DNA from: an uncultured Thermotogae bacterium | GTDB lineage: Bacteria > Bipolaricaulota > Bipolaricaulia > UBA7950 > UBA9294 | DNA length: 35,045 nt | Direction of reading: 5' to 3' | NCBI GenBank assembly: GCA_964416685.1 | Contig: CAYQFN010000001.1 | Coordinates: 1 to 35,045 of the forward strand | Shown here: piece after piece, positions 10,501-24,240 of the stretch | Layout: each line of letters opens with the position of its first letter | Numbering within the stretch: position 1 is the stretch's first letter | Made by a program: the position numbers and the translations under genes | Notes under the pieces: model-generated | What the model saw: the letters and a program-made list of their open reading frames with translations, nothing else | The model's database searches: none | Told to the model about the DNA's origin: nothing

Positions 10501-12578
10501 ACAATCCAGATAGCGCTGCCTTTACGCGCATCGGACTGCGCCAATTCGTCTGGACGACTCCGCTTGAGCTAAGACTGAGCGCGCCGACACAATGCGACGG
10601 CGTTAGGTTCATGGTATCGGATGATTATGGCGCGTGGGCCTACAGCACGATCGTTGTGGATGTCTATGCGGGCCATAGCTGGACAAATGTATATAAAGCA
10701 CCGGTTTCCGAGGGCACCTGGAAAACGGTATCGTTTAGCGCAAGAGCTATCAGTGCAATGAGGATAACGGCTAGGCGAAACAGCGTGCCCAGGGACATCA
10801 AATTCTACATCAATGAAGCTCAGTTTCATCAGCTTGGTAGCGCTCCCGGACCTGCCAACCAGCCTCCGAGTGCAGCGTTCTCGTACTCACCGAGTTCTCC
10901 CAATGTTGGACAGCAAGTGACGTTCAACGGGTCGAGTTCTGGCGATTCTGACGGATCGATCGTCTCTTATCAATGGAACTTCGGCGATGGGACAGGAGGC
11001 AGTGGAGCGGTTGTGCAACACGCCTACGCCAGCAGCGGAACGTACCAGGCTCGCTTGACAGTCATCGACAACGACGGTGCAAGTAACGCGGCTACGCATA
11101 ATGTGACGGTTGCGCAGGCAGCCCCTGGGCTCTCCATTCAGCTTTCGCTTCCCAAATCGTTGTATCAAGTGGGCGAGGCGATACTAATCAATTACACATT
11201 GAACCGTGAAGCATACGTCTACATCTGTGAGGCGGACGCCAGTGGTAAGTTAAGTCTCCTCTACCCGAACTACATCGAGCGGAACAACCGCGTTTCGGCG
11301 GGGACACATAGCCTCCCGAGCGGTGGATATACCTTGCGAGTGAGTGAACCAACAGGAAACGAGACTCTGTACGCATTTGCTGCGACGAGTCCTCTTCCCA
11401 ATTTTCCAACGCAGTTCTCCGGGTCGTTCCCTGTTCTCAGCTATAATCCACCCAGCTTCCGCAACAGTGTCCTGCAGACGATGCAGTCGCAGTTGCCGCC
11501 GGGCGAATACGCCGAGGACTCGCTTGGATTGAGTGTCATAGCGCAAGCCCAGAGCACCGGAACGCTGTGGGTGAGGTCTTCGCCGCAAGGGGCCTCGGTT
11601 ACGATCGATGGCTCGTTCGTGGGTACGACACCAACGCAAGTCACGACAACGGTGGGAACGCACACTGTGAGCATCTCTCTCTCCGGTTATCAGGGCGAAA
11701 CCCGCCAGGCTCCGGTCTACGCCGGACGGACGACCACGGTGCAAGTTCTCTTGCAACCGCAGAGTGTGGGCCCCAGCGCGACGTTCACTGTGAATCCAAC
11801 AGAGGCGACAGTTGGACAGGGGATACTGTTTGACGCCAGTGGTTCAACCGCACCGAGTGGCTGGATCGTCTCCTATAGCTGGGACTTCGGCGATGGAAGC
11901 AGTGCTGCTGGCGTGCAGGCCGTACACGCCTACGCAGCGCCCGGTACGTACACTGTCCGCCTCCTTGTAAGCGACAATCAGGGGAGCACGGCGATGGCGC
12001 AGGCGAGCGTGCCGATCAGCGGTGGATGGATGCCGCCACCTCCCACGGTGGGAGCTCCCGCAATGGGGAATACTCCCGGGATCTTTGTGTGGGGCACGGA
12101 CACGTGGCACATCACGGTGAACGCCGGTGCTGGCTGGATGAGCCCACACAGCTACCGCTTGGAGCTTAGAACCGATGGCTCCTTCCAAGGAGTGAACCAG
12201 TCGACGAGTGGTGGGGTTGTTCCTCTCGGGGTTATTCCCACACCGACAGAGGGCGGCAAGACACTCGTGTTTAACGGGAGCCTACAGGCGGGGAGTGCGG
12301 ACTACACATTCACTGTTCCTAATTCCAAGAGCGTGTGGATGAGCCTGAAGCTGGACATCAACGGAGATGGAACACTTGATGAGTCAGAGAGCTTCGTGTA
12401 CTTGCGGACAATGATGGTCCATCCGCCGGTGGCCCCGTTTGTAGTAGGGCTGCCGAGCGGAAGCAGCGGTCCGCTCGTGCCGAGCATGAACTTCCGTGTG
12501 GGAAGGGGATTGACCTACACATCGAGCGTACGATTCATCATGTGGATGACCTCAATCAACACGCTGGAAGGACACTGA
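7521..12578 (+). CDS. Giant secreted multidomain subtilisin-like serine protease (peptidase S8), 1685 aa
   Basis: Signal peptide MKRILILLLILSALAVPAFSA. Catalytic residues: Asp in VKVAIIDLGF (gat 8526-8528), His in SHGTAVAE (cac 8631-8633), Asn in AAGNEA (8874-8876), Ser in GTSGATPHVSGAAALL (tct 9417-9419). Four PKD-like repeats (W.FGDG...H.Y...G.Y.V.L.V.D) lie at about 9587-9843, 10172-10410, 10858-11112 and 11770-12020. Other modules: CARDB-like (~9856-10160, ...ESNEANN), discoidin/galactose-binding-like (~10425-10840), DUF4384-like (~11125-11400) and PEGA-like (~11560-11755). Confidence 0.9.
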   Translation: MKRILILLLILSALAVPAFSAAPLSVGVDQTTRSDWNAIVASFEENTRIKVNLHPYPENSLAQQAVIEKTTRAGKINLIMLRNDWARSLQRYTIDLSHYEQRLTDAGAKLMYVSGQPLGVIIPFAPDWFLALIAWPGNPEDAISFLSSLTAGPTFATPAPSKVSPEAMIKSFATTKIARSEHNPKLDGSLEALLGAVQSTVGPMTANFMSRLPVQAQTALSGLAKLYGIPFSAATSTVTVVLETQGGRTSSASVAALSALGVSKSSIEASASLIKVSVPLSQLSTIVNQISGISFIRGPYKPYPLSITGQGIHAINADVLHASGVTGSGVKVAIIDLGFAGLSQAQSRGDIPVSVQQYDVTGTGLTSGISHGTAVAEILHEIAPDAQLYLIKIADEVDLDQAVTYCLNNGIKIISHSLGWYNTNFYDGTGTVADIAKRAIQGGILWVNAAGNEAQSHWEGTFRDNNSDGWNDQSVSFSASAGQQIILYMTWNDWPKASSDYDLYLYDPSNNVVASSTKHQTGTEEPTESIITTASSSGTYHIKVKGTGGKKIEIYNLYQNLSPAIASSSILAPGNVDQVVTVGAIDYHHYSSGSQEPYSSQGPTNDGRAKPDLCAPDNVTTGTSPYTTFAGTSGATPHVSGAAALLLSENPSMSESALRSELLSETVSMGSPYIYGHGRLVLTPIAAPNQSPHAAFNMSTSSTAVGSSVSFNASASSDSDGSIVNYAWQFGDGASASGVTTQHAYATTGTFTVRLTVRDNDGATDTTQQQVHVSTAAKADLVVAGITHSPAQPTIGANITFLVNVKNQGTSNASQFRVKLSGNGSSVNKYVTSLSAGGSTNISLVLPLTQSPETFTVTVDDTNQVPESNEANNQGQETVQQGSQPVAADAGGPYSGAPGHAITFNGSGSSGPISDYTWNFGDGGSAHGVNPTHAYASAGTYTVTLTVTGTGTRDTDTAPVTISAPAPSAGAWISPVGYTDSSRLYLYPERAYDDNPDSAAFTRIGLRQFVWTTPLELRLSAPTQCDGVRFMVSDDYGAWAYSTIVVDVYAGHSWTNVYKAPVSEGTWKTVSFSARAISAMRITARRNSVPRDIKFYINEAQFHQLGSAPGPANQPPSAAFSYSPSSPNVGQQVTFNGSSSGDSDGSIVSYQWNFGDGTGGSGAVVQHAYASSGTYQARLTVIDNDGASNAATHNVTVAQAAPGLSIQLSLPKSLYQVGEAILINYTLNREAYVYICEADASGKLSLLYPNYIERNNRVSAGTHSLPSGGYTLRVSEPTGNETLYAFAATSPLPNFPTQFSGSFPVLSYNPPSFRNSVLQTMQSQLPPGEYAEDSLGLSVIAQAQSTGTLWVRSSPQGASVTIDGSFVGTTPTQVTTTVGTHTVSISLSGYQGETRQAPVYAGRTTTVQVLLQPQSVGPSATFTVNPTEATVGQGILFDASGSTAPSGWIVSYSWDFGDGSSAAGVQAVHAYAAPGTYTVRLLVSDNQGSTAMAQASVPISGGWMPPPPTVGAPAMGNTPGIFVWGTDTWHITVNAGAGWMSPHSYRLELRTDGSFQGVNQSTSGGVVPLGVIPTPTEGGKTLVFNGSLQAGSADYTFTVPNSKSVWMSLKLDINGDGTLDESESFVYLRTMMVHPPVAPFVVGLPSGSSGPLVPSMNFRVGRGLTYTSSVRFIMWMTSINTLEGH

Positions 12579-13095: not shown

Positions 13096-13411
13096 AGGGA
13101 AGTGACCAGCAAGATTCCCCGTATACGCCTTCAGTCGCCTATCCTCGCCTCAATTCACGGGAACATCCATTGAATCTCCTGCACGGGTTGATTCCCCGCC
13201 CCTTCGGGCGTGCTTCTTGGAAAGCCTCTTGATACACCGTTCGCTTGCAGTGGGGTACTTCACTATCGTGCCTAATTGATCAGTCTTCTGGGACACAACC
13301 ATCTTTTCCATCCGCCCTGCCAGCAGCGTGACTTCCGCATCCCTGTGCGTTATCATGCACCGCCCGTCATCATACAAATGAGCGGAGCAAATCAGCGAGG
13401 GTGAAAGAGCG

Positions 13412-15055
13412 ATGGACTTTGATCACAGCTTGCAGGCGTTACTTACTGGGAAGAATGTTGTCAACAACCCAACCCGAGAATCACAAATCGAAGATGCCGT
13501 AAAGAACAAAGAGGCGTTCGTTAGCGCCTGCGGAGCGCTTGCCACATGGACCCCGGTGGAATCCACCGGACGCAGCCCGCTCGACACCCTCACTGTTCGT
13601 CGTGCGAAGAGCGAAGGCGACATCGATTGGGATTCGCCAAACAACATTCCAATCGACGAAGAGACGTTCGACATGGTTATCGAGGACGCGCTCGCCACGC
13701 TCAATCGCAAGGAGAGGATCTACATCACCGACCGTGTCCTCGGCGCGGATTCCGCATATGCTCTTCCCGTTAAGACGATCACCGATCGAGCTCTCACCGC
13801 CCTGTTCACCGACAACATGTTCCGGCCCATTCCATCGGATATTGAGCGCAGCATCTTCGCCGATCGCCCGTTTGTCATGCTCGTCCTCCCTTACGACAAG
13901 CTCGATCCGAAGCGCTATGAGGGTCGCCTGCGCATCGATCCGCGCCTCGGTGGAACATCAACGATGGTCATTGGCATGGACTACGATCGCAGGATTGGAG
14001 TCGTCTACGGATCAGCTTACGGAGGATCGGTGAAGAAGTTGATGTTCACCGTGATGAACTACCTCCTCCCCGGGGAGGGGATCTTGCCGCTGCACTGCTC
14101 GGCAAACGAAGGAGAGAACGCAGATTCCGCACTCCTCCTCGGCCTCTCCGGAACCGGAAAGACGACCCTCTCCGCCGACCCGCGCCGCTCCCTTCTCGGC
14201 GACGACGAGCACGGATGGAGCGATGACGGGATCGCGAACTTCGAGAACGGCTGCTACGCCAAGCTGATCGACCTCGATCGGAAGAAGGAGCCGGAGATCT
14301 ACAACGCGGTCATGCACAAGGATGACTACCGCAAGCACGGGGCGATCGTAGAGAACGCAATGTTCTATCCCAACGGAGAATTTGACTTATACGACGACCG
14401 CCTCACACCAAACTCCCGCGCCTCCTACCCGCTCACCTACCTCTCCAACATCAAGGCGTCGTCCACCGCGGGACATCCAAAGACGATCCTCTTCCTCACA
14501 GCCGATGCCAACGGTGTCATTCCCCCGATCTCCAAACTGAATCGCGAACAGGCGATGCTCTGGTTCCTGATGGGCTACACCAGCAAGCTAGCGGGGACGG
14601 AGACCGGAATCGTCGAGCCGAAATCCACCTTCTCCCGCTTTTTCGGTGAGCCGTTCATGCCGCGCAACCCGGACGTATACGCGCGCCTCCTCGGCGAGAA
14701 GATGGAGAAGTACGGGACAATCGTTTACCTAGTGAACACAGGCTGGAGCGGGGGCCCGTACGGGGTCGGAAAGCGAATGGACATCAACCTTACGCGCGCG
14801 ATGGTCCACGCTGCCCTCACCGGCGAGCTTGCAACTGTCGATTACGATGAGAACGAGACCTTCCACGTGCTCGTCCCTCGTACTTGCCCCGATGTCCCGC
14901 AAGAGATCCTCAACCCAAGAAACACGTGGGAAGATAAAGCAGCTTACGATGCGCGCGCTGCGAAGCTCGCCTCCGAGTTCGCCGCTCATTTCGATAAGGC
15001 TTACGGAAACAAGGGGATCGAAGAGGCGATCATCCATCAGTGCCCAGGAAAGTGA
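13412..15055 (+). CDS. pckA: Phosphoenolpyruvate carboxykinase (ATP)
   Basis: 547 aa with LLLGLSGTGKTTLSADP (P-loop), GDDEHGW, FENGCYAK and NTGWSGGPYGVGKRM, all hallmarks of ATP-dependent PckA. Confidence 0.93.
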   Translation: MDFDHSLQALLTGKNVVNNPTRESQIEDAVKNKEAFVSACGALATWTPVESTGRSPLDTLTVRRAKSEGDIDWDSPNNIPIDEETFDMVIEDALATLNRKERIYITDRVLGADSAYALPVKTITDRALTALFTDNMFRPIPSDIERSIFADRPFVMLVLPYDKLDPKRYEGRLRIDPRLGGTSTMVIGMDYDRRIGVVYGSAYGGSVKKLMFTVMNYLLPGEGILPLHCSANEGENADSALLLGLSGTGKTTLSADPRRSLLGDDEHGWSDDGIANFENGCYAKLIDLDRKKEPEIYNAVMHKDDYRKHGAIVENAMFYPNGEFDLYDDRLTPNSRASYPLTYLSNIKASSTAGHPKTILFLTADANGVIPPISKLNREQAMLWFLMGYTSKLAGTETGIVEPKSTFSRFFGEPFMPRNPDVYARLLGEKMEKYGTIVYLVNTGWSGGPYGVGKRMDINLTRAMVHAALTGELATVDYDENETFHVLVPRTCPDVPQEILNPRNTWEDKAAYDARAAKLASEFAAHFDKAYGNKGIEEAIIHQCPGK

Positions 15056-15358
15056 ACAGTCTGAGACTGTCCATCGTTTCGAGTGGTTGACGAAATCCTG
15101 ACCGCCAATGACAAGACGCTGTCCTCTCGCCCATTCGCTGCGCTCTTCTGAGCCGCTAAGGGAAAGAGGGAGCACACGCGGAGGTGGGAAGGATTTCCCT
15201 GGCGCACTTGCATGCGGAGGTGAAAGCCTCTATTCGGTGTTCGGACTCGCTTTCGCAACCCGCATTGAGCAGAGGCCTGAATGGACACCAGAAGATAGGA
15301 GACTAGCCTCTGTTGGATTCTCTTTCGTCTTCTACGTGTTTTTCCGCGCCCTACTTTG

Positions 15359-15898
15359 TCAGACCCCGGATTGCAGGATGATCTTCGTTACGTTCTGTAC
15401 CCAGAAGCTCCCCGCGGAGGTGGTATTGTACTCGGCGTTGCTCACGGCGCCATCTTCCGGGAGTACAGCGATGCGAAACCCCATCTGCCAAGCGGGCACC
15501 TCCACATCATCGAACGCGTAGGCGAGGATCATCGGATAATCTGGGTCCTCCACCCGCTCCCGATCGATCGACAGATCATAGCCGTCGGCAGCGACGACAC
15601 GGATGGAGGTGTAATCAACCTCGGAACCGATGAGATCGCTCAAGCGCACTCCGGTATAGGTACCCTTGTCACGCCAGTTGTTGAACTGGTTCTGGTATGT
15701 TCCCTCCCGCTTCAGCGTCGGCATGCGCTTCATCATGGGGAGTGTTACCGTGCGAGTGGTCCCCTCCAAACTGACGATCTCGATCCCCGGCGAATCGACG
15801 TGCAGTGCGGTGCGAATGACGAATGAGGCGATCACGGCCACGATCAGAACGATGAAGCCAACAAGGTACCAGCGCCTAAGATGCGTATTTACAGCCAT
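15359..15898 (-). CDS. Membrane-anchored protein with one extracytoplasmic SUOX/YedY-fold (molybdopterin-oxidoreductase-like) domain
   Basis: 179 aa. N-terminal anchor WYLVGFIVLIVAVIASFVI, then GTYTGVRLSDLIG...IRVVAADGYDLSI...PMILAYAFDDVEVP...GFRIAVLPEDG...FWVQNVTKIIL. There is no Cys at the position of the Moco ligand. The start overlaps the ecfT stop by 10 nt. Confidence 0.7.
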   Translation of the reverse strand: MAVNTHLRRWYLVGFIVLIVAVIASFVIRTALHVDSPGIEIVSLEGTTRTVTLPMMKRMPTLKREGTYQNQFNNWRDKGTYTGVRLSDLIGSEVDYTSIRVVAADGYDLSIDRERVEDPDYPMILAYAFDDVEVPAWQMGFRIAVLPEDGAVSNAEYNTTSAGSFWVQNVTKIILQSGV

Positions 15899-16656
15899 GC
15901 ATACCTCCTAGCGACTATAGTTACACCGATCAACAATAAACAGAGGACAATAACGGCCCAGTCGAAACTCCCCCAACGGCTCTCCTGCGCTGTGGTCCGC
16001 CGTGGATGAAGCCCGAAGCAGCGCCCCTTCATGGAGATCGCGATGCTGTCCACGCGCGTTAACCCCGAGACGAGCACCGGGAGGAAGGTATAGCGGAGCG
16101 CGCGACGCAAGCTGGAGAAGCTGCGGATCGAGGGAGAGAGGCCACGTACACGCTGCGCCTCCCGCACTGTTTTGAGCTCCTGGCGGAAGAACGGCACGAA
16201 GCGCAGCGCGAGAACGAGGATGAACCCATAGCGATACGGGATCCCCAAGCGAATCAGTGCGTGGGCGAAGCGGTCGGGATCGGTCACCATCACAAATAGC
16301 ATGCTCGATGAGAGGATAACGAGGAAACGCAATGCCATCTGCGCGCCGAACAGGAGCCCGCGATCGGTGATGTCTATCCCGAGAGAGAAGAGAGTCTCTC
16401 CATCGTGGATAGAGACCGCCTGCGCCACAAACAGGAAGGCGGCGAAGATAAAGACGAAGCGCGTGCTGCGCAGGAACAGGTTCTCTCCAGATAACGTCGC
16501 AAGCGTGAACACGAGGACAAGGGCCCCCAGTTTGATCAGCACCCCCGGCGCAGCGAGAACGGCAAACAGAAAGCCGAACAGCAGCGCCAGGTTCGCCTCA
16601 GGGGAGGCCCGGTGAAGGCCCCTCGTCCCGGCGGAGTAGGAGATGTGTGAGATCAT
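15889..16656 (-). CDS. ecfT: ECF transporter transmembrane (T) component, CbiQ/EcfT/YkoC family
   Basis: 255 aa from ATG 16656, which overlaps the ATPase stop (ATGA at 16653-16656). GLHRASPEANL at the N-terminus, polytopic, with the coupling region LALRFVPFFRQELKTVREAQRVRG. The longer 325-aa ORF extension is arginine-rich read-through and was rejected. Confidence 0.8.
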   Translation of the reverse strand: MISHISYSAGTRGLHRASPEANLALLFGFLFAVLAAPGVLIKLGALVLVFTLATLSGENLFLRSTRFVFIFAAFLFVAQAVSIHDGETLFSLGIDITDRGLLFGAQMALRFLVILSSSMLFVMVTDPDRFAHALIRLGIPYRYGFILVLALRFVPFFRQELKTVREAQRVRGLSPSIRSFSSLRRALRYTFLPVLVSGLTRVDSIAISMKGRCFGLHPRRTTAQESRWGSFDWAVIVLCLLLIGVTIVARRYAWL

Positions 16657-18089
16657 ATCGGTTCGCCCTCCCAGTAGCCGGGAGTGAACGCTTCCTTCCC
16701 CATCGTTCGCAGCCGTGCGCTCACCGTTTCTGGATCTCCGCTCAGCGGCCGCTCGTCCAAATACAAGATCCGGTCGCACAGGGAGTTGACGAGCGGAATG
16801 TCGTGTGAAACAAGGAGGATCACCGCTCCCCTCTCTCGCGCAGCGAGGATCTTGGAGATTATCCAAGCGACGTTCGCCCGATCCTGTCCGATGAACGGCT
16901 CGTCGAGGAGGAGGAGATCGGGCTCGCGCACCAGCGTCGTCGCCAGTGTCAAGCGTCGCTGCTCTCCCAAGCTGAGCGAGAGGGGAGGAGCGTCCTCCAA
17001 GCCGGCCAGGTTCGCATCATCGAGAAAACGGTGAAGGTCATCGTCGTTGACCACTCCTTCGATCCCAAACTCCCCTCTCACACTGCGCTCGAAGATCTGC
17101 TGATGCGGGTGCTGGAACAGGTAACCGAGGACGCCCCTTGTGGGGCGAATTATCCGTCCACGACAAGGTTTTTCCAGACCTGCAATGAGGCGGAGGAGCG
17201 TCGTCTTCCCGCCCCCGTTTGGGCCGATGATCCCCAGTATCTCCCCCGGCTCCACGCTGAGCGAAAGGTCTTGGAAAAGAGGATCTTCACTGTAGCCGAA
17301 CATGAGGCCTTCAACCCGCAATGGCGCGGCCTCAGAGCACCTCACCGGTGCGGGAAGATCGAGGTTCTCGTGGGCGCGCAGCCCGAGAGCCAGCAGATCC
17401 TCGCGATGCCTGGTCACGCGCCTGGTGACGATCTTGCCCTCGTCCATCACCAGCACCCGCGGGGAGAGCGGAAGGAGAGGGGCGAGGCGATGCTCGACCA
17501 CCATCAGGGTGCGCCCCTCGCGATCACGCAGCTGGCGCAGGAGGTCGAACACCGCCTTTGCCCCTTCCGGGTCGAGGTTGGCGGTCGGTTCGTCGAGCAG
17601 GATCGTGCGCGGAGCCATCGCCAGGATCGAGGCAATTGCCAGGCGCTGTTTCTCCCCGCCAGAGAGGGTCATCGTCGTCCGCTCCGCCAAGTGCGCGATC
17701 CCTACGAAGTCCAGTGACTCCTCTACCCGGTTGACAACCTCGCTTCGCGAAAGGCAGAGGTTCTCCGGGCCGAAGGCGACCTCCTGCCATACGTTGAGCG
17801 TGCAGATCTGTGCATCCGGATCTTGCTGGATCAGTCCGAGACAGGTGGCGATGCGCGCGGGGTCGGATGTCCACACCGACTCTCCGTCGAGCCTGATACC
17901 GCCCGATACCGCGGCCGGGATCATCCCCGGGATGAATCCGGCCAGCGCTCTGCACAATGTAGACTTGCCGCACCCGGACGGCCCGGTGATAGCGATGACC
18001 TCGCCGCTTTCGATCGTCTCTGACAGGCGGTCGATCGCCGGGCGCACTCGATCCCGATATTGTATGGTAAGATTATCGATCTCGATCAT
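16653..18089 (-). CDS. Fused double ABC ATPase (EcfA1-EcfA2 in one chain, YkoD-like)
   Basis: 478 aa with two complete cassettes. Walker A GPSGCGKST and GPNGGGKTT, signatures LSGGEKQRLAIA and LSLGEQRRLTLA, Walker B ILLDEPTANLD and LLLDEPFIGQD. Confidence 0.88.
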   Translation of the reverse strand: MIEIDNLTIQYRDRVRPAIDRLSETIESGEVIAITGPSGCGKSTLCRALAGFIPGMIPAAVSGGIRLDGESVWTSDPARIATCLGLIQQDPDAQICTLNVWQEVAFGPENLCLSRSEVVNRVEESLDFVGIAHLAERTTMTLSGGEKQRLAIASILAMAPRTILLDEPTANLDPEGAKAVFDLLRQLRDREGRTLMVVEHRLAPLLPLSPRVLVMDEGKIVTRRVTRHREDLLALGLRAHENLDLPAPVRCSEAAPLRVEGLMFGYSEDPLFQDLSLSVEPGEILGIIGPNGGGKTTLLRLIAGLEKPCRGRIIRPTRGVLGYLFQHPHQQIFERSVRGEFGIEGVVNDDDLHRFLDDANLAGLEDAPPLSLSLGEQRRLTLATTLVREPDLLLLDEPFIGQDRANVAWIISKILAARERGAVILLVSHDIPLVNSLCDRILYLDERPLSGDPETVSARLRTMGKEAFTPGYWEGEPI

Positions 18090-18144
18090 CAGTCTTCCAG
18101 ATTCCGTTTCAGAAACCCTGTCGCAAGACCACAGGGAATCTTAA

Positions 18145-18224
18145 GTTGAATGATTGTGGGATAGGATGATTGAGAGATTGGGAAGTCAAATCACTCAATC
18201 TCTCAGTCGCTAAATCACTCAATC
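18145..18224. repeat. Copy B of the 8-bp phased ATTG/CAAT dyad repeat family
   Basis: GTTGAATG ATTGTGGG ATAGGATG ATTGAGAG ATTGGGAA | GTCAAATC ACTCAATC TCTCAGTC GCTAAATC ACTCAATC. That is five forward and five inverted 8-nt units inside the 143-nt gap between the S-fusion gene and the ATPase gene. Confidence 0.7.
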
Positions 18225-18232
18225 CCGTCCGT

Positions 18233-19276
18233 CTATCGCACGACAATCCGGCTCACCTTCCTCACCCAATATGCTCCATCGTATCTCCCAGCGATCAGGC
18301 GCAGGCGCCCGTTATCCAGGGCAATGATCATCTGCTTGTCGCTGATGGCTGCGGACAGGTCAAAGCTCACCTGATAGCCGTCATCGGCGATTACCAGCAC
18401 GGTCTGCGCCCCCTCCTGCGGCCTTCCCTTCTCCAGGATGAGCGAGAGCGGGATCCCGGTGTACGCCTGCGGGGGCGCGTAGGTGGAACTGCCGCGAAGC
18501 TCGGCGACGATGCTCAGCGCACGGTCCTCCCAATCCGAATAGCGGAAGGTGTAGGGCGATGATACAGCGCCTTCAATGCGTGCGCTGTCTGGGGAAGAGA
18601 AGGGGGCATAGACGGATGTGTAGTAGTAAACGCCTCCTGCGAGGAGAGCAAGGATCGTGGTGAGGGTGAGGAGGCGTCGCCACCAGGAAGATGGACGCGG
18701 GATTGGCCCGTCTTCTCTCCTTGGCACGAGGCGCGAGGCGATCAGGAAGCGGCGGATGTCCCACCCCAGGTAGCCGCCGAAGAAGGCGCCGGAGACGAAA
18801 GAGAGGCCGACCATCACCAGGATGAACGCCGGCGTCACCCCCGACAGGTAGATGGCCTGAAAGATGAACACGTTCGATGCCGAAGCGACGCCAGCGGTGA
18901 ACATCGTCAACGCCAGCGACTGACGGCGCGAGATCCCCATACCGAGGTCGATCAACAGCCCCTCTACCAGGGAGATGAGGACAATCACCACCCCGTGTGT
19001 CCCGCCAGAGAGGAGCTCGATCGCTCCCTTAGTCACCCCAGTCAGCGTCCCCGCCCCGAACCTCCCGATGAGCAGGCGGGCGAGGATTGGCCACAGGATG
19101 TGCAGCCCAGCGATCAACTGCCCCGCCCCGAATGGGACCCCGAACAGGCGATTGATCAGGTTTCCGATGTAGCCGACGTAGGTAGAGAGGACGCCGCCGA
19201 TCGACGCGAGGAGGGCCACCAAGACAATCTCACGCACATCCAGTAGTGGCCGCTTCTCTCTCGTCTCTGTGCTCAT
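18233..19276 (-). CDS. ECF S-component-like (YkoE/ThiW-like) membrane core fused to a C-terminal extracytoplasmic SUOX/YedY-fold domain
   Basis: 347 aa. Residues ~1-190 form a glycine-rich polytopic core (GAGQLIAGLHILWPILARLLIGRFGAGTLTGVTKGAIELLSGGTHGVVIVLISLVEGLLIDLG). An extra TM follows (LLTLTTILALLAGGVYYY), then YTGIPLSLILEKG...VLVIADDGYQVSF...MIIALDNGRLRLIAGRYDGAYWVRKVSRIVV. A GGGAG RBS sits between the upstream TAA and ATG 19276. Confidence 0.7.
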   Translation of the reverse strand: MSTETREKRPLLDVREIVLVALLASIGGVLSTYVGYIGNLINRLFGVPFGAGQLIAGLHILWPILARLLIGRFGAGTLTGVTKGAIELLSGGTHGVVIVLISLVEGLLIDLGMGISRRQSLALTMFTAGVASASNVFIFQAIYLSGVTPAFILVMVGLSFVSGAFFGGYLGWDIRRFLIASRLVPRREDGPIPRPSSWWRRLLTLTTILALLAGGVYYYTSVYAPFSSPDSARIEGAVSSPYTFRYSDWEDRALSIVAELRGSSTYAPPQAYTGIPLSLILEKGRPQEGAQTVLVIADDGYQVSFDLSAAISDKQMIIALDNGRLRLIAGRYDGAYWVRKVSRIVVR

Positions 19277-19286
19277 CCATACTCCC

Positions 19287-20771
19287 TTATGGGAGTTCGA
19301 CCTCGATCGAAGAGAGGAACTTCACGCTCTTGACGGTTGTCCCCCTCGGAAAGACGACGGAATCGTCGTATACGAAGCGCATGTACCCATCCTGCTCGGG
19401 ATCGAGGAAGGCGCCGTCCTTCTTGAAGGCAACGATGAATCTGTCATCGTGAGCAATCACCTGTGATGTGATGGATTGCTTGTACCCGTCCTTCGCAATC
19501 AGGGTGATCATGTAGCCGGATGCGGCTAAAGAATCGTTGAAATCAGCATCATCGTAGTGGATTCCCTGCTCCGACTCGGGAGCACGATCATCATCGACAT
19601 AGGCAATGAGCCGCCACAGCGGAAGCCCGGTGTAGGTGTGGGTCACTCCCTTACTGGTCACAGTCACGCTGGAGGCGTGGCAGGGGCAGCCGACACCGCC
19701 TTCCAACTCGCTGCGGGAGAAGGTCCGCGTGATCGCGCCGTTCATCTCAAGCGAGTAGTCGACGTAGGTACCGAGGACATCGATCCGCGACACCATCTTC
19801 GCAGAGACAGCTCCTTCAAAGCGAGGATTATTCTCGCCGACCAGCACGACGCGGAGCGGACCGGGATCGTAGGGCATATAGGACCCGTTCTCCTTGTACG
19901 CAAGGATCCATGTTCCCTGCGAGCGGTCGAGGAGCTTACCCGCCTTGTAGTTCATGGAATAACCATCCGCAGCTGTAACACGGATGGTCGTGTCGGCGGA
20001 TACGTTACCGATCAGCGTCGCCATGGGCACGCCGGTGTAGGACGCTGTGTAGTCCACCCCTACTGCATTTACGAACGTTCCCTTGGCTGTTACGACATCA
20101 AGTGTTTCCAGGTCAGCGATCGTGTAGTCCCTGCTCGTATCGCCAATGACCACGGTCAGGCTCCTTGCCGGGGTGACCACTGTGGTGTCCTCTACGGTCG
20201 TCTGCGTGGGGAGAGCCCCGCCGTCGTAGTTTACGATCAGGTAAGCGACGTCCTTCACCATGAGACCGGTGGATGATGCCCGGCCTGAATAGTAGTGGGA
20301 CAGGCTCTCGCCGAACGAGTTGAGCATGTCCTCGTTTGAGAAACGCTCATCCTGCGGGAGGAGCACGAAGATCGGTGAGCCGCTGAATCCGCCTTCACCG
20401 TCCTTGGAATCAGCGAGTATAGCCTCCCCGGCCAGGGTAGTGTCGTAGATGACGTCATAGGGCACCTGTTGGTAGTAGCCGTCCGTCGCTACCACAGCGA
20501 GCAGATCCCCCTCGCCCATCCCACCGACAGCGCTGAGCAGGTCACTGATCAGCACGCCGGAGTAGGTGTGCGCATCCTTCCAGTTCTCATTGTCCGTGTT
20601 GAAGACCGGGCCCTGGTAAGCGACGGTCCCGGTGACCTGCGAAGCGTTCGCGAAACCCACCTCCACGACCTGATTTCCCTTCTGTACGAAAACACTGATC
20701 CCTGTCCCGGCAAACACTGTTGTGCATAACCCTAGCACTAATACCAACAACGCAGTTGCAAGTTTTTTCAC
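19287..20771 (-). CDS. Secreted protein with three tandem SUOX/YedY-fold (molybdopterin-oxidoreductase-like) domains
   Basis: 494 aa from GTG 20771, which follows GGAGGGAG with a 6-nt spacer. Signal peptide VKKLATALLVLVLGLCTTVFA. Three repeats: YSGVLISDLL..AVVATDGYYQ, YTGVPMATLIG..VTAADGYSM..WILAYKENG..PLRVVLVG, and YTGLPLWRLIAY..TLIAKDGYKQ..FIVAFKKDG. Confidence 0.7.
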   Translation of the reverse strand: MKKLATALLVLVLGLCTTVFAGTGISVFVQKGNQVVEVGFANASQVTGTVAYQGPVFNTDNENWKDAHTYSGVLISDLLSAVGGMGEGDLLAVVATDGYYQQVPYDVIYDTTLAGEAILADSKDGEGGFSGSPIFVLLPQDERFSNEDMLNSFGESLSHYYSGRASSTGLMVKDVAYLIVNYDGGALPTQTTVEDTTVVTPARSLTVVIGDTSRDYTIADLETLDVVTAKGTFVNAVGVDYTASYTGVPMATLIGNVSADTTIRVTAADGYSMNYKAGKLLDRSQGTWILAYKENGSYMPYDPGPLRVVLVGENNPRFEGAVSAKMVSRIDVLGTYVDYSLEMNGAITRTFSRSELEGGVGCPCHASSVTVTSKGVTHTYTGLPLWRLIAYVDDDRAPESEQGIHYDDADFNDSLAASGYMITLIAKDGYKQSITSQVIAHDDRFIVAFKKDGAFLDPEQDGYMRFVYDDSVVFPRGTTVKSVKFLSSIEVELP

Positions 20772-21379
20772 TATCGTCTCCCTCCTGCATGATGATTGAG
20801 CAATTATCATAGGGCTTAAGGCTAATGGGATGAGGAATGCATCTGGAAGCCCTGATACTGCCAGCCTAATGATCATACTGCCCCTTTATGTGAGGCGCCT
20901 TGCGTAAGTGGGCATAAACAGGGAACTCTAGCAACAGATGATGCGCATTCGCTCCCCTTTTCAATTACGGAAGGCGCAACCGTTTCCAATTACACCCTAT
21001 CGCCCGCCTTCCCTAGACTGATCCGTAGGAAGCACGGGTCGGAGAACCGACAACGCAAGACTACCGCTGCCGAGGGTACATTTCAAGCAGTGGCGGCATC
21101 TTTGCAAAGGACAATAGCAAGTACTAGAATAGTGCTATTGCCGCTCGTACGCTGTGCAAGGGAGATTGGCGTGTGCGAAGATTTGAAATAGAAAGCGCTA
21201 TCGTACCTTGCCAGATATAGTTCAGGCATGCTGGCAACAGTGGACACGAACGGAGCGCATGCCGGGAGCAGTGGAGTACATGCGCCCAGACGAGATGGAA
21301 CCGCATTTGTTCGAGCGCTAGGCTCTACCGAGAAGAAAGTAGTTAAACGAGGTATACTTGCAGAAACGGAGGTGGCAGA

Positions 21380-21589
21380 ATGCCTAGTTTTCCCAGATTT
21401 CTGTTTCGCGTGAAGGATAGACACATAGAGGAAGAGGCGAAGAAGATGGTCGCCAGTTTCGGGATTAAGGATATCGAGATCCGGCGCGATGACACTATCA
21501 AGGACGCGTGGTTAGAGGACAACGAGGCACTTAAGACAACCTATGGACTAGAGGATATCCGCGAATACCTGGAGAACCTGGTCTCGTAA
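21380..21589 (+). CDS. Hypothetical small acidic protein (69 aa)
   Basis: ATG 21380 follows a strong GGAGGTGG (21368-21375). I recognise no family (…IKDIEIRRDDTIKDAWLEDNEALKTTYGLEDIREYLENLVS). An internal ATG at 21446 is an alternative start. Confidence 0.4.
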   Translation: MPSFPRFLFRVKDRHIEEEAKKMVASFGIKDIEIRRDDTIKDAWLEDNEALKTTYGLEDIREYLENLVS

Positions 21590-21692
21590 TTGAGTGATTG
21601 AATGATTGAGTGATTGAGTGGTTATATCATTCAATGATTGATGGTTGGCCTCTACAATCGCTCAATCTCCTGCTCACTCAATCACTCAATTC
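21589..21692. repeat. Copy C (longest) of the 8-bp phased ATTG/CAAT dyad repeat family
   Basis: Thirteen consecutive 8-nt units: ATTGAGTG ATTGAATG ATTGAGTG ATTGAGTG GTTATATC ATTCAATG ATTGATGG TTGGCCTC TACAATCG CTCAATCT CCTGCTCA CTCAATCA CTCAATTC. It fills the whole gap between the convergent stops at 21587-21589 and 21695-21697. Confidence 0.8.
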
Positions 21693-21694
21693 TT

Positions 21695-22918
21695 TCAGTT
21701 TAGTCGCGCCCGCAGTCGAGCAGAGATGTAGTCGATTCCCCATACGGTAATCACAATAAGGAGCATCATCATCCCTGCGCTGCGGTAGTCTGAGACCTTC
21801 ATGTACTGGTACAGACTCTGCCCGATACCCCCACCACCGACGATACCGATGATCGTCGCCATACGTACGTTGATGTCCCAGCGATAGAGAGTAAATGAAA
21901 GGTATGGATTGATAATTTGGGGAATGATCCCGTACATGATTACCTGTAGCCTATTTCCTCCCGCGGCTCGGATTGCTTCTACCGGGCCGGGATCGATCGA
22001 CTCCAACCGCTCGGAGTAGAGTTTGGTCAGATCGGCGATCGAGTGAACAAAGAGCGCCAACACGCCCGGGAAGGCCCCTACGCGCACCCACACCAGGAAG
22101 ATAATCGCCCAAATGATTGCGTCGATCGACCGGGTGATGCTGATCACCACCCGAACTACAGTATAGATCGTACGCCCAATGATCCCCTGAGCAAGATTGC
22201 GTGCTGCCAGGAAGCTCAGTGGAACAGCGACCACAATGGCGAAGATCGTTGCCATGAACGCCATGTAGATCGTGACTATGAGGAGACGCACCCCGCTTCC
22301 GAGAAGACTGAAGTCGGGGTTCAACAGCCGGACCCATATCCTGCGCGTCTTGCCCGCCCTTGTGAACAGGTAATACAGGTTCACGTCGGTCACTCCAATC
22401 GCAGCGAGGAGAGTCAATACGCCAATCAGGGCAAGCGCAATCTTCCAGCTTGTTCGATACCAAGGTAGCCGCTTCTCCTCCACCTTAGCCGCACTGACGG
22501 CGTACAGGTGAGTCACCCGGTCATGCCACGGTTCTTGTTGGGAAGAGAAGAAAAACGAGATGAGAGATAGCGGAGCAATGTGCCACAGGAGATAGCGCAT
22601 CAAGTGATCTACAATCCCGCCTCCCTTTCCACATGATGAGAGCCTAACTCCAAGAAAATGCATCCCAAGAGAGACGCCGAAGTTCTCCCACACGGCAGCG
22701 ATCTCCACTGCAACGATGAGCATGACCCACCAAGGAAGAGTAACGTAACTTCCCGTTCCAAGGGCAAACCTGTTCCAGCAGTAGGAGGCCATTGTCCATA
22801 AGTAGGATACGGCAATAAGGTCTGTAAGAAAGACCAGCGACCGACGGCGAATCACCTGGAAACGCTTGCCATAATCGGGACTATCGGTCATGAATCCGGC
22901 ATGGTAATGGTCCTGCAT
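21695..22918 (-). CDS. phnE: Phosphonate-type ABC transporter permease PhnE with an N-terminal RDD-like membrane domain
   Basis: 407 aa. The C-terminal ~260 aa is PhnE-like (PLSFLAARNL...RSIDAIIWAIIFLVWVRVGAFPGVLALFVHSIADLTKLYSERLESIDPGPVEAIRAAGG...YRWDINVRMATIIGIVGGGGIG). The N-terminal ~150 aa carries RRRSLVFLTDLI and SLGMHFLGVRLS, which resemble RDD-family motifs. Confidence 0.8.
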   Translation of the reverse strand: MQDHYHAGFMTDSPDYGKRFQVIRRRSLVFLTDLIAVSYLWTMASYCWNRFALGTGSYVTLPWWVMLIVAVEIAAVWENFGVSLGMHFLGVRLSSCGKGGGIVDHLMRYLLWHIAPLSLISFFFSSQQEPWHDRVTHLYAVSAAKVEEKRLPWYRTSWKIALALIGVLTLLAAIGVTDVNLYYLFTRAGKTRRIWVRLLNPDFSLLGSGVRLLIVTIYMAFMATIFAIVVAVPLSFLAARNLAQGIIGRTIYTVVRVVISITRSIDAIIWAIIFLVWVRVGAFPGVLALFVHSIADLTKLYSERLESIDPGPVEAIRAAGGNRLQVIMYGIIPQIINPYLSFTLYRWDINVRMATIIGIVGGGGIGQSLYQYMKVSDYRSAGMMMLLIVITVWGIDYISARLRARLN

Positions 22919-24240
22919 CAGTTGATCTTCTCCCTCACCCGACCGCTCAGGTAATCAAGGAACCAGACAACCACGACGATGACGGCGATTACAGCCGCTA
23001 CTTGATTCCAAGCATTGTCAATGCGCCCCACCTGTCCCTTGTAGTAGAAGAGCAGGCGTCCAATCCCTCCTCCTCCGACAAGAGAGATGACCGTGGCCAT
23101 ACGCAGGTTAATGTCCCAGCGATACAGGGTAAATGCAAGGAAGGAGGGAACTACTTGAGGAATGACGCCGTACATGATTACCTGCCAGCGTCGCGCCCCG
23201 CTGGAGGCTATCGCCTCCAGAGGACCGGGATCGATCCCTTCCACCTGCTCAGAGTACAGCTTGCCCAATGCCGCGATCGTGTGCACTGCAAGGGCCAATA
23301 CACCTGCGAACGGACCGAACCCTACCCAGATGGCAAAGACAATCCCCCACAACAGTGATTCGATCGAGCGCACAACGTTGAAGAACCCGCGCATTATCCA
23401 GTAGATCGCCCAGCCCAGCGGACTGAATCCCATCATGTTTCGTGCGCCTAAGAAGCTTAAGGGGAATGCAATAATTCCTCCTAATGCTGTTGCCAAGAGG
23501 GCCATAAAAAGGGATTGAAGGAGGCCAGCGAATATCGATGCCGGTAGATCAGGATTGGCGTTGACTGCAAGTTCTGGGTCTGGGGTGAACATGTGTGTAA
23601 AATCGGGTGTCACCAGGGCCTTCCACATATAGGCACTCCTGGGAGCACGCTCAATCAACGCGGAGATGCTAATCTGGGTGACCAACCAGCCAACCCAGAC
23701 GGTTAGAACGATGAGAAAGATTGCCACTGCCCCACGGTATGTCTTGTACCACGAACGCGGGGCGACAACCGGCATCTCTTCCTTCACGTCCTTGACCCGG
23801 AACATCCCGGTGCTGCTCATCTTGTCGTGCAGAAGCTTGTTCTTCCGATCGGAGCTGAACAGGGTAACGGGCAATGAGAGTAGAGAAATGTGCCACCACA
23901 GATATCGGCGCAGGCGCTGGGCGCGCGTTGGATACTGATAGTCTTGCGTTAACACCCTTAATCCGAATAGGCTCAGTCCAATGCTCTGCGCAAAGGCGTG
24001 GCCAATAGCAGCTAACTCGAGCGTGCCCAGGATGACAATTGGCCAACCCCAACTGGGCACGGTGAGGCGACCGTAGAAGTGAATCTCCGTGTACCAATAA
24101 CGATTAAGAAGGAAGACAATTTCATAAGCGATGAAGCCCCACAGGGCCCAGTCCACGAAGAACGCCCCAAACCTCGTCTTCAGTGCGCCAAAACGAGTGA
24201 GACGTTTACCGGACTTCAACTTGCTCGGCTTCGTCGCCAT
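22918..24240 (-). CDS. phnE: Phosphonate-type ABC transporter permease PhnE with an N-terminal RDD-like membrane domain
   Basis: 440 aa. PhnE core (PLSFLGARNMM...RSIESLLWGIVFAIWVGFGPFAGVLALAVHTIAALGKLYSEQVEGIDPGPLEAIASSGA...YRWDINLRMATVISLVGGGGIG). The N-terminus has TRFGAFFVDWALWG and SIGLSLFGLRVL (RDD-like). ATG 24240 lies 35 nt inside the end of phnC. Confidence 0.8.
   Translation of the reverse strand: MATKPSKLKSGKRLTRFGALKTRFGAFFVDWALWGFIAYEIVFLLNRYWYTEIHFYGRLTVPSWGWPIVILGTLELAAIGHAFAQSIGLSLFGLRVLTQDYQYPTRAQRLRRYLWWHISLLSLPVTLFSSDRKNKLLHDKMSSTGMFRVKDVKEEMPVVAPRSWYKTYRGAVAIFLIVLTVWVGWLVTQISISALIERAPRSAYMWKALVTPDFTHMFTPDPELAVNANPDLPASIFAGLLQSLFMALLATALGGIIAFPLSFLGARNMMGFSPLGWAIYWIMRGFFNVVRSIESLLWGIVFAIWVGFGPFAGVLALAVHTIAALGKLYSEQVEGIDPGPLEAIASSGARRWQVIMYGVIPQVVPSFLAFTLYRWDINLRMATVISLVGGGGIGRLLFYYKGQVGRIDNAWNQVAAVIAVIVVVVWFLDYLSGRVREKIN

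Follow-up and report, generated by a model that had tools for sequence, protein, structure and literature searches.

The window analysed here, a 35,045-nt stretch of contig CAYQFN010000001.1 (assembly GCA_964416685.1) from an uncultured bacterium of the Bipolaricaulota lineage, contains an operon of five tightly packed open reading frames (ORFs), all on the minus strand (Table 1). They encode, in order, an exported protein with three tandem copies of a sulfite oxidase (SUOX)-like domain (P1), the S component of an energy-coupling factor (ECF) transporter fused to a fourth copy (P2), a double ATPase (P3), a CbiQ/EcfT-type T component (P4) and an anchored protein with a fifth copy (P5). Neighbouring genes are separated by 10 and 143 nt at the first two junctions and overlap by 4 and 10 nt at the last two. 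These spacings and the gene coordinates exactly reproduce the five co-directional genes of a first-pass annotation made from the DNA letters, and the gene order it proposed was borne out by profiles and structure models. The P1 start is the GTG codon at 20771, with the Shine-Dalgarno sequence GGAGGG in front, and public collections list the same 494-aa product.

The N-terminal part of P2 matched the Pfam family ABC_cobalt (PF09819, the YkoE family) at aa 15-132 with 59.7 bits against a cutoff of 25.2 (E 4e-16). The P2 family profile aligned with the YkoE structure 5EDL over aa 13-192 (E 3.4e-10), and Foldseek placed the core on 5EDL with a target-normalized TM-score (TMt) of 0.79, in agreement with the YkoE-like S component suggested earlier for this N-terminus. 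The AlphaFold2 (AF2) model of P2, with a mean predicted local distance difference test score (pLDDT) of 80 and about 90 for the C-terminal domain, consists of six core helices, a linker, a seventh helix and a beta-rich domain. The linker (aa 181-197), located before transmembrane (TM) helix 7, is Arg-rich, of low confidence or disordered in the model, and cytoplasmic by the positive-inside rule. Both termini of ECF S components are cytoplasmic, and the extra TM helix therefore places the C-terminal domain of P2 outside the cell. The two ATP-binding cassette (ABC) domains and the CbiQ domain expected for the next two genes were both found. P3 contains two ABC_tran domains in a single 478-aa protein (Pfam E 1.7e-55), scored 241.9 against TIGR01166 cbiO (cutoff 211.8) and gave approximately 266-269 bits with ECF_ATPase_1/2. 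P4 matched CbiQ at aa 12-219 (E 1.1e-27) and TIGR02454 at E 5e-19, which is under the equivalog cutoff of that model, and the coupling-helix motifs ALRFVP and AQRVRG were read from its sequence. A CbiQ/EcfT T component, two ECF ATPase domains and a six-helix S component with T and A genes of its own firmly support the assignment of the locus to the dedicated (group-I) ECF importers. Group-I systems are also characterized by having no extracytoplasmic substrate-binding protein, whereas this locus encodes five exposed SUOX-like domains, one of which is fused to the S component.

Profile searches revealed the relationship among these domains. Pfam Oxidored_molyb matched two stretches of P1 (E 4.6e-15) and, weakly, aa 270-321 of P2; P5 had no match in Pfam. 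A hidden Markov model (HMM) of the P5 family gave three matches in P1 (30, 35 and 7.7 bits) and one in P2, and an HMM of the P2 C-terminal domain gave three matches in P1 and one in P5, which supports five domain copies in the operon. All of them carry the motifs A-x-D-G-Y and Y-[ST]-G with little or no variation. Thus, of the Oxidored_molyb matches predicted by the first-pass annotation, those in P1 (two stretches by Pfam, three by HMM) and at the P2 C-terminus (weak) were recovered and the one in P5 was not, the fold of P5 being evident from its AF2 model instead. A single-sequence search of the Protein Data Bank (PDB) with P1 gave zero matches. A profile built from all copies aligned with the whole molybdenum cofactor (Moco) domain of SorA (chain residues 67-222, E 6.6e-12), and the P2-family profile matched SoxC (2XTS) over the C-terminal domain (E 7e-4). 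Foldseek searches with the models of the P2 C-terminal domain and P5 returned SorA, sulfite oxidase, YedY and nitrate reductase with a probability of 1.0, and the matches to the P2 domain also included SoxC and PruR. The P5 model (pLDDT 90.9) has a PruR/SUOX fold, and its top PDB matches were the PruR structures 7KOM (E 7e-8, TMt 0.75), 7RKB (with neopterin) and 7KOS (TMt 0.68-0.76 overall), which rank above, or interleave with, the SUOX enzymes.

The SUOX/YedY fold proposed for the repeats in the first-pass annotation is confirmed by these matches, but an enzyme of the YedY or sulfite oxidase type is not. The "qcs" segment of SorA that carries Cys104 is an insertion relative to the domain profile, and the hairpin with the Mo-ligating Cys is therefore deleted in these domains; P2 and P5 have no conserved Cys at the Mo-ligand position. 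The invariant residues of the P2 domain are Y272, G274, D299-G300-Y301 and W337, with no conserved Cys among them, and those in the P5 family alignment are Q-N-Q-F-x-N-W, A-x-D-G-Y, R113, R115, W137 and S-A-G-S-x-W. None of the modes of export involves a twin-arginine (RR) motif. P1 has a KK-type Sec signal, possibly of a lipoprotein (LGLC), P5 has a signal anchor and the P2 domain has a TM tether. Since the signals are of the Sec or anchor type and never of the twin-arginine translocation (Tat) type, the domains exit the cell unfolded and without cofactor. Based on these sequence features, the five domains are predicted to be binding modules and not Moco enzymes. In PruR, the pterin is contacted by N102 and Y104 and its ring is stacked against a C-terminal Trp (PMC11194511). 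As judged from the alignment, A-L-N-D-Y of PruR would correspond to the invariant A-x-D-G-Y, and its P-W, which replaces the Mo-ligating Cys, to the N-W of P5; both P2 and P5 have an invariant C-terminal Trp. There is firm support for five PruR-like binding domains outside the cell, of which the P2 copy is tethered to the S component. Domain 3 of P1 additionally contains a G-C-P-C-H motif (aa 361-365, nt 19677-19691) that is at least 90% conserved among 33 homologues. It is located at a site different from the canonical SUOX Cys position and might contact a metal or a dithiolene, or act as a redox CxC.

The decisive functional clue, which is absent from the first-pass annotation, is a riboswitch for Moco or the tungsten cofactor (Tuco) upstream of P1. 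The aptamer (RF01055) is the only Rfam element in the window; it scored 67.8 bits against a gathering threshold of 36 (E 1.9e-14, model positions 1-135), lies on the operon strand and ends 166 nt 5' of the P1 start codon. Its stem P3 is missing (model positions 59-73 are deleted), as it is in all aligned relatives. Such P3-less variants associate almost exclusively with genes for molybdopterin (MPT) biosynthesis or for the tungsten cofactor (Regulski et al., PMC2408646). We searched the loci of relatives with a covariance model made from six P3-less elements and found the P3-less aptamer upstream of a homologous operon in another Bipolaricaulota locus (L003) and in nine Bacillota loci (L046, L047, L048, L050, L056, L079, L069, L075 and L067). 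Moco/Tuco was the only riboswitch type found, in 12 loci from two phyla, with no riboswitch for tetrahydrofolate (THF), thiamine pyrophosphate (TPP) or preQ1. No consensus terminator was found between the aptamer and the P1 start codon, and the minimum free energy fold of the leader was uninformative on the expression platform (z = -0.96). One Syntrophomonadales locus carries a P3-less riboswitch on the minus strand (L053:12584-12703), opposite a run of ECF, kinase and TrmO-like genes and followed by no minus-strand ORF, which may reflect antisense control or a rearrangement; a gene for a surface 5'-nucleotidase/cyclic phosphodiesterase then follows at 13253-15062.

In 21 Bipolaricaulota loci that have no riboswitch, the first gene of the operon encodes a regulator with an XRE-type helix-turn-helix and tandem TOBE (Mop-like) domains, and abuts or overlaps the P1 start. 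The TOBE domains best matched the ModC/WtpC regulatory domain 3D31 (E 4.8e-4), ModG (E 0.011) and Mop (E 0.019). In the Bipolaricaulota loci the TOBE regulator usually takes the place of the riboswitch, and thus an RNA that senses the cofactor and a protein regulator of the Mop type are interchangeable at this operon. That the operon belongs to the molybdenum/tungsten (Mo/W)-cofactor regulon is firmly supported.

The gene linkage is conserved far beyond chance. Clustering at 90% leaves more than 380 members in the S-fusion family, each of approximately 345 aa, and an exhaustive HMMER scan of 1.84 billion representatives gave 249 matches at E ≤ 1e-3 and 47 at E ≤ 1e-30, which makes it a small and specialized family. 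The 161 genomic relatives belong to the Bipolaricaulota, the Bacillota (Syntrophomonas, Pelotomaculum, Dethiobacteria) and the Thermoplasmata/Methanomassiliicoccales. P2, P3 and P4 are adjacent in every locus with enough flanking sequence. The complete order P1-P2-P3-P4-P5 was found in 34 loci, all from Bipolaricaulota, and most loci without the full order are cut by contig ends; the five-gene arrangement, whose conservation across genomes the first-pass annotation proposed to test, is thereby shown to be conserved. In a complete Bipolaricaulota chromosome (L081, CP070725.1 246408-266941, compared with L044), the S-fusion locus contains neither P1 nor P5, and the P5 homologue is located approximately 750 kb from P2-P3-P4, beside a Y1 transposase; the accessory proteins can therefore be unlinked. 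Some relatives of the S fusion (P0264-P0273 and others) reach 450-460 aa and match in two stretches, which points to a further domain. S cores of about 190 aa without the fusion and anchored domains of about 180 aa that stand alone also exist in small numbers, and some of them may be fragments.

The gene neighbourhood in relatives adds further components. In 18 loci from two domains of life (Bacillota and Thermoplasmata), the gene immediately upstream of the S fusion encodes a calcineurin-like metallophosphoesterase with a signal sequence and a fused P5-type domain (for example L046:3763-5220). All five catalytic motifs of the enzyme (GD, GD, GNHD, H and GHxH) are strictly conserved, and where an aptamer was found, its gene usually comes first after the riboswitch. 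Genes similar to purple acid phosphatases (PAP) are located upstream in 5 further loci, and an APH/RIO-like kinase gene lies just downstream in 8 loci from Bacillota and archaea. In one locus (L061:11191-15083) the ECF genes are followed by genes for an APH-like kinase, ModD (209 bits, above cutoff), a ModE-N regulator and a molybdopterin oxidoreductase similar to formate dehydrogenase (Fdh), and in another (L063:7267-9175) by genes for DUF364/DUF4213 ("heavy-metal chelation"), GGACT and a Rossmann domain of the XdhC family of Moco chaperones. In a Pfam census of 100 further flanking ORFs from the loci outside Bipolaricaulota, Oxidored_molyb was the most frequent and the only enriched family, and no recurrent genes for Moco biosynthesis were seen.

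Based on these results, we consider it about an even chance (probability approximately 0.5) that the operon encodes an ECF importer that captures and imports a pterin of the molybdopterin family, that is, a system for Moco/Tuco salvage. When the cofactor is scarce, the P3-less riboswitch would permit expression, as suggested by the behaviour of its class. Outside the cell, the five Cys-less domains would bind a molybdopterin-family pterin shed by other cells, for which MPT, cyclic pyranopterin monophosphate (cPMP), Moco/Tuco or a dephosphorylated or de-nucleotidylated derivative are the candidates. The binding sites would be spread over P1 (three domains), the anchored P5 (one) and the S component (one, tethered). 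The domains would hand the ligand to the YkoE-family S core, whose toppling, powered by the CbiQ-type T component and the double ATPase, would free it into the cytoplasm. In the Bacillota and Thermoplasmata relatives, the extracellular metallophosphoesterase fusion may first trim a phosphoester and the APH-like kinase would re-phosphorylate the imported compound, which by analogy would follow the dephosphorylate-import-rephosphorylate logic of cofactor salvage. The gene set, the folds, the logic of the topology, the riboswitch and the conserved linkage and context are observations, from which we infer the identity of the ligand, its hand-over from the domains to the S core and the direction of regulation. 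The pterin reading is favoured because it alone explains a pterin-binding fold in which the contact positions appear to be retained, together with a vitamin-type, YkoE-like S core, as well as an intact phosphoesterase on a capture domain, a cytoplasmic kinase and an XdhC neighbour. The "capture antenna" role suggested in the first-pass annotation is favoured for the same domains, the nearest structures being those of the Cys-less, pterin-binding PruR.

Several observations weigh against pterin import. The three P1 domains lack the C-terminal Trp that would stack on the ligand, and searches for homologues of the phosphoesterase, the kinase and the TOBE regulator found none in the window, the first two being components of the proposed salvage route. 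TOBE regulators and ModD are classically tied to the transport of molybdate and tungstate, and the riboswitch, the TOBE regulator, ModD and ModE fit metal uptake equally well. Moco riboswitches commonly control the mod and tup transporters, and the Tuco specificity of the P3-less class is a published correlation, not biochemistry (both PMC2408646). The truncated cleft of PruR reportedly does not offer enough room for full Moco (PMC11194511); by analogy the same limit may hold here, in which case a smaller pterin such as cPMP or a trimmed form could be bound instead.

An ECF-type importer of tungstate, molybdate or a thio-oxyanion, in which the degenerate SUOX domains and the phosphatase domain of the relatives capture the oxyanion and feed it to the S component, is unlikely but is the main alternative. 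It would account for a riboswitch that commonly controls modABC and tupABC, for the similarity of the tandem TOBE domains to 3D31, ModG and Mop, and for the ModD and ModE-N genes adjoining the operon in L061. Other ECF systems with extracytoplasmic accessory proteins, such as NikK/NikL, are metal systems, PAP-type phosphatases bind tungstate and molybdate as inhibitors, and several invariant Arg residues in P5 and the conserved GCPCH of P1 domain 3 would suit such a ligand. Metal uptake does not explain, however, the linked cytoplasmic APH-like kinase, the phosphoesterase whose catalytic motifs are all intact in 18 loci, or the apparent retention of the pterin-contact positions of PruR in the capture domains. 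The S core is moreover of the YkoE (thiamine/hydroxymethylpyrimidine, HMP) type and not of the CbiM/NikM metal type, and we know of no SUOX-fold oxyanion binder without Moco. A further candidate is an importer of a pterin or heterocycle unrelated to Moco, for example a folate or methanopterin precursor or a signalling pterin, with an indirect link to Mo/W. The YkoE family imports a pyrimidine vitamin moiety, extracellular pterins are abundant, and PruR binds pterins of the monapterin and neopterin type in a cleft too short for Moco (PMC11194511). We regard this as improbable, given that Moco/Tuco was the only riboswitch found, in 12 loci from two phyla, with none for THF, TPP or preQ1, and that the TOBE, ModD, ModE-N, XdhC and molybdopterin-oxidoreductase neighbours all point to Mo/W-cofactor metabolism. 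The "extracytoplasmic redox processing" envisaged in the first-pass annotation would require genuine Moco/Tuco oxidoreductases, similar to MsrP/YedY or sulfite dehydrogenase, that process the substrate before uptake. The Pfam and NCBIfam similarity to Oxidored_molyb and SoxC would agree with this, as would the Moco riboswitches that sometimes precede Moco-dependent enzymes. The chance is nevertheless very slight, since the Mo-ligating Cys loop is deleted with no conserved Cys in its place, the Sec and anchor signals make pre-loading with cofactor impossible, the operon encodes no dimerization domain, haem domain or other electron-transfer partner, and the nearest structures are non-enzymatic PruR proteins. 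Active enzymes of the MsrP/sulfite oxidase type were ruled out by the missing Cys loop and the non-Tat signals.

Table 1. Coordinates of the operon, its domains and its leader in the window.
Feature	Position (nt)	Strand	Evidence
P1, Sec-exported protein, three tandem Cys-less SUOX/PruR-like domains	19287..20771	-	Oxidored_molyb E 4.6e-15; three P5-family HMM matches
P1 domain 1 (aa ~21-190), N-W-K at the SUOX Cys-loop site, A-T-D-G-Y	20202..20711	-	
P1 domain 2 (aa ~205-345), best Pfam Oxidored_molyb stretch	19737..20159	-	
P1 domain 3 (aa ~346-494), G-C-P-C-H motif	19290..19736	-	
P2, YkoE-family ECF S component, TM helix 7 and fourth SUOX/PruR-like domain	18233..19276	-	
P2 S-component core (aa 13-192), six TM helices	18701..19240	-	Profile, AF2, Foldseek
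P2 TM helix 7 (aa 198-222)	18611..18685	-	AF2 secondary structure and pLDDT
P2 extracytoplasmic SUOX/PruR-like domain (aa 228-347)	18236..18595	-	
143-nt intergenic gap P2/P3, copies of the GATTGAGTGATT palindromic repeat	18090..18232		
P3, fused double ECF-type ABC ATPase (A-A')	16653..18089	-	Two ABC_tran, E 1.7e-55
P4, CbiQ/EcfT T component	15889..16656	-	Pfam CbiQ E 1.1e-27
P5, N-terminal signal-anchor protein, single PruR-like domain	15359..15898	-	AF2 and Foldseek
Moco/Tuco riboswitch aptamer RF01055, P3-less variant	20938..21056	-	Rfam 67.8 bits

The 143-nt gap between P2 and P3 contains copies of a palindromic repeat (GATTGAGTGATT/AATCACTCAATC), of which the window has 16 copies with at most 2 mismatches against 3.2 expected. 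The copies cluster at two intergenic spots, at 18168-18224 inside this gap and at 21588-21691. P2 and P3 overlap in most relatives and the gap is limited to the closest ones; it therefore looks like a small lineage-specific insertion, similar to a repetitive extragenic palindrome or a miniature inverted-repeat transposable element (REP/MITE-like). A 69-aa ORF (MPSFPRFLFRVKDRH...) was read by eye on the plus strand at approximately 21381-21590, between the region upstream of the riboswitch and the repeat array. Flanking genes in the window encode a PhnCDE-like ABC transporter with RDD fusions, a Bmp nucleoside ABC transporter, phosphoenolpyruvate carboxykinase, an S8/PKD protease, MscS and CitMHS; these flanking genes are all unrelated to Mo/W and were ruled out as a functional clue. 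At 21695-24240, two adjoining PhnE-like ABC permeases have long N-terminal extensions, with an RDD domain in the second of them (Pfam E 5.8e-8); genes for a PhnC-like ATPase and a phosphonate-type binding protein follow. The protease gene (7521-12578) encodes a 1685-aa secreted subtilase (S8) with CARDB, four PKD, DUF4384 and PEGA domains, and is preceded by a gene for a 264-aa signal-peptide protein without a family match.

By the textbook definition, ECF transporters function without any extracytoplasmic binding protein. Moco and Tuco are regarded as being made by every cell that uses them, with uptake known, phenomenologically, only in nematodes. A search of the literature on ECF or YkoE together with the transport of Moco, molybdenum, tungstate or pterins gave no account of a system of this kind, and no bacterial or archaeal importer for Moco/Tuco or pterin precursors was found in the searchable literature (not all journals were covered by either search). 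The first-pass annotation stated that no described ECF module combining an S-component fusion with two extra proteins of the same exposed fold was known to it. RegPrecise-based surveys list only the mod and tup transporters under Moco riboswitches, and how pterins cross membranes is said to be unknown in a 2026 review. At slightly less than even odds, the operon would represent both the first dedicated prokaryotic uptake system for MPT, cPMP, Moco/Tuco or trimmed derivatives and the first ECF S component with a tethered binding domain and a multi-domain antenna.

An S component covalently tied to a binding domain, with four more copies of the domain in the same operon, alters the textbook picture of ECF transport, and the S-fusion family is a natural setting in which to test how a ligand can be passed to an S component that topples. 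If the imported compound is a molybdopterin-family pterin, cross-feeding of Mo/W cofactors among strict anaerobes would be implied, the extracellular phosphoesterase and intracellular kinase of the relatives would complete a dephosphorylate-import-rephosphorylate salvage route, and cofactor sharing could be tested in syntrophic, tungsten-dependent anaerobic communities of digesters, sediments and the subsurface. A tungstate or molybdate substrate would instead make the system a fourth class of oxyanion transporters, unrelated in mechanism to the others. In either case, the operon extends the range of the newly recognized PruR-type "degenerate SUOX" binding fold beyond signalling in proteobacteria, to transport in three further phyla.

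The closest known transporter is the group-I thiamine/HMP system YkoEDC(F), which has an S component of the same family (PF09819) and dedicated T and ATPase genes beside the S gene. It differs in having a TPP riboswitch and YkoF, for which the operon has no similar gene, whereas control is here exerted by the Moco/Tuco riboswitch or the TOBE regulator, the S component has an extra TM helix and an extracytoplasmic domain, and two exported proteins of the same fold are added. With neither TPP riboswitch nor YkoF, and with a Moco riboswitch instead, a thiamine/HMP transporter (YkoEDC proper) was ruled out. NikMNQO and CbiMNQO, with NikK/NikL/CbiN, are likewise group-I ECF systems that use extra exposed proteins, but their S components are of the CbiM/NikM family, their accessory folds are different and their substrates are Ni2+ and Co2+; we know of no accessory domain fused to the S component in these systems. 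The tethering of binding domains to the translocator, which raises the local ligand concentration, is known from OpuA and GlnPQ, although these are type-I importers with periplasmic-binding-protein folds, as opposed to ECF (type III) and SUOX-like here. ModABC, TupABC and WtpABC occur in the same regulatory neighbourhood (Moco/Tuco riboswitch, TOBE/Mop, ModD and ModE), but are type-I ABC transporters dependent on substrate-binding proteins, with no component homologous to the S, T or SUOX-like parts of this system. The SUOX molybdoenzymes sulfite oxidase, SorA and YedY/MsrP have the Moco-domain fold in common with the domains described here, from which the Mo-ligating Cys and Tat export are missing. 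PruR (7KOM, 7RKB and 7KOS; PMC11194511), which provides the best structural matches to P5, is also a small, exported, Cys-less and truncated SUOX fold, with a sequence identity to these domains of 14-22% only. PruR is a proteobacterial single-domain protein that partners with the c-di-GMP enzyme DcpA in signalling, whereas the domains described here partner with the S, T and A components of an ECF transporter. They are found in anaerobic Bipolaricaulota, Bacillota and Thermoplasmata, either in tandem or as fusions with a transporter subunit or with a phosphoesterase.

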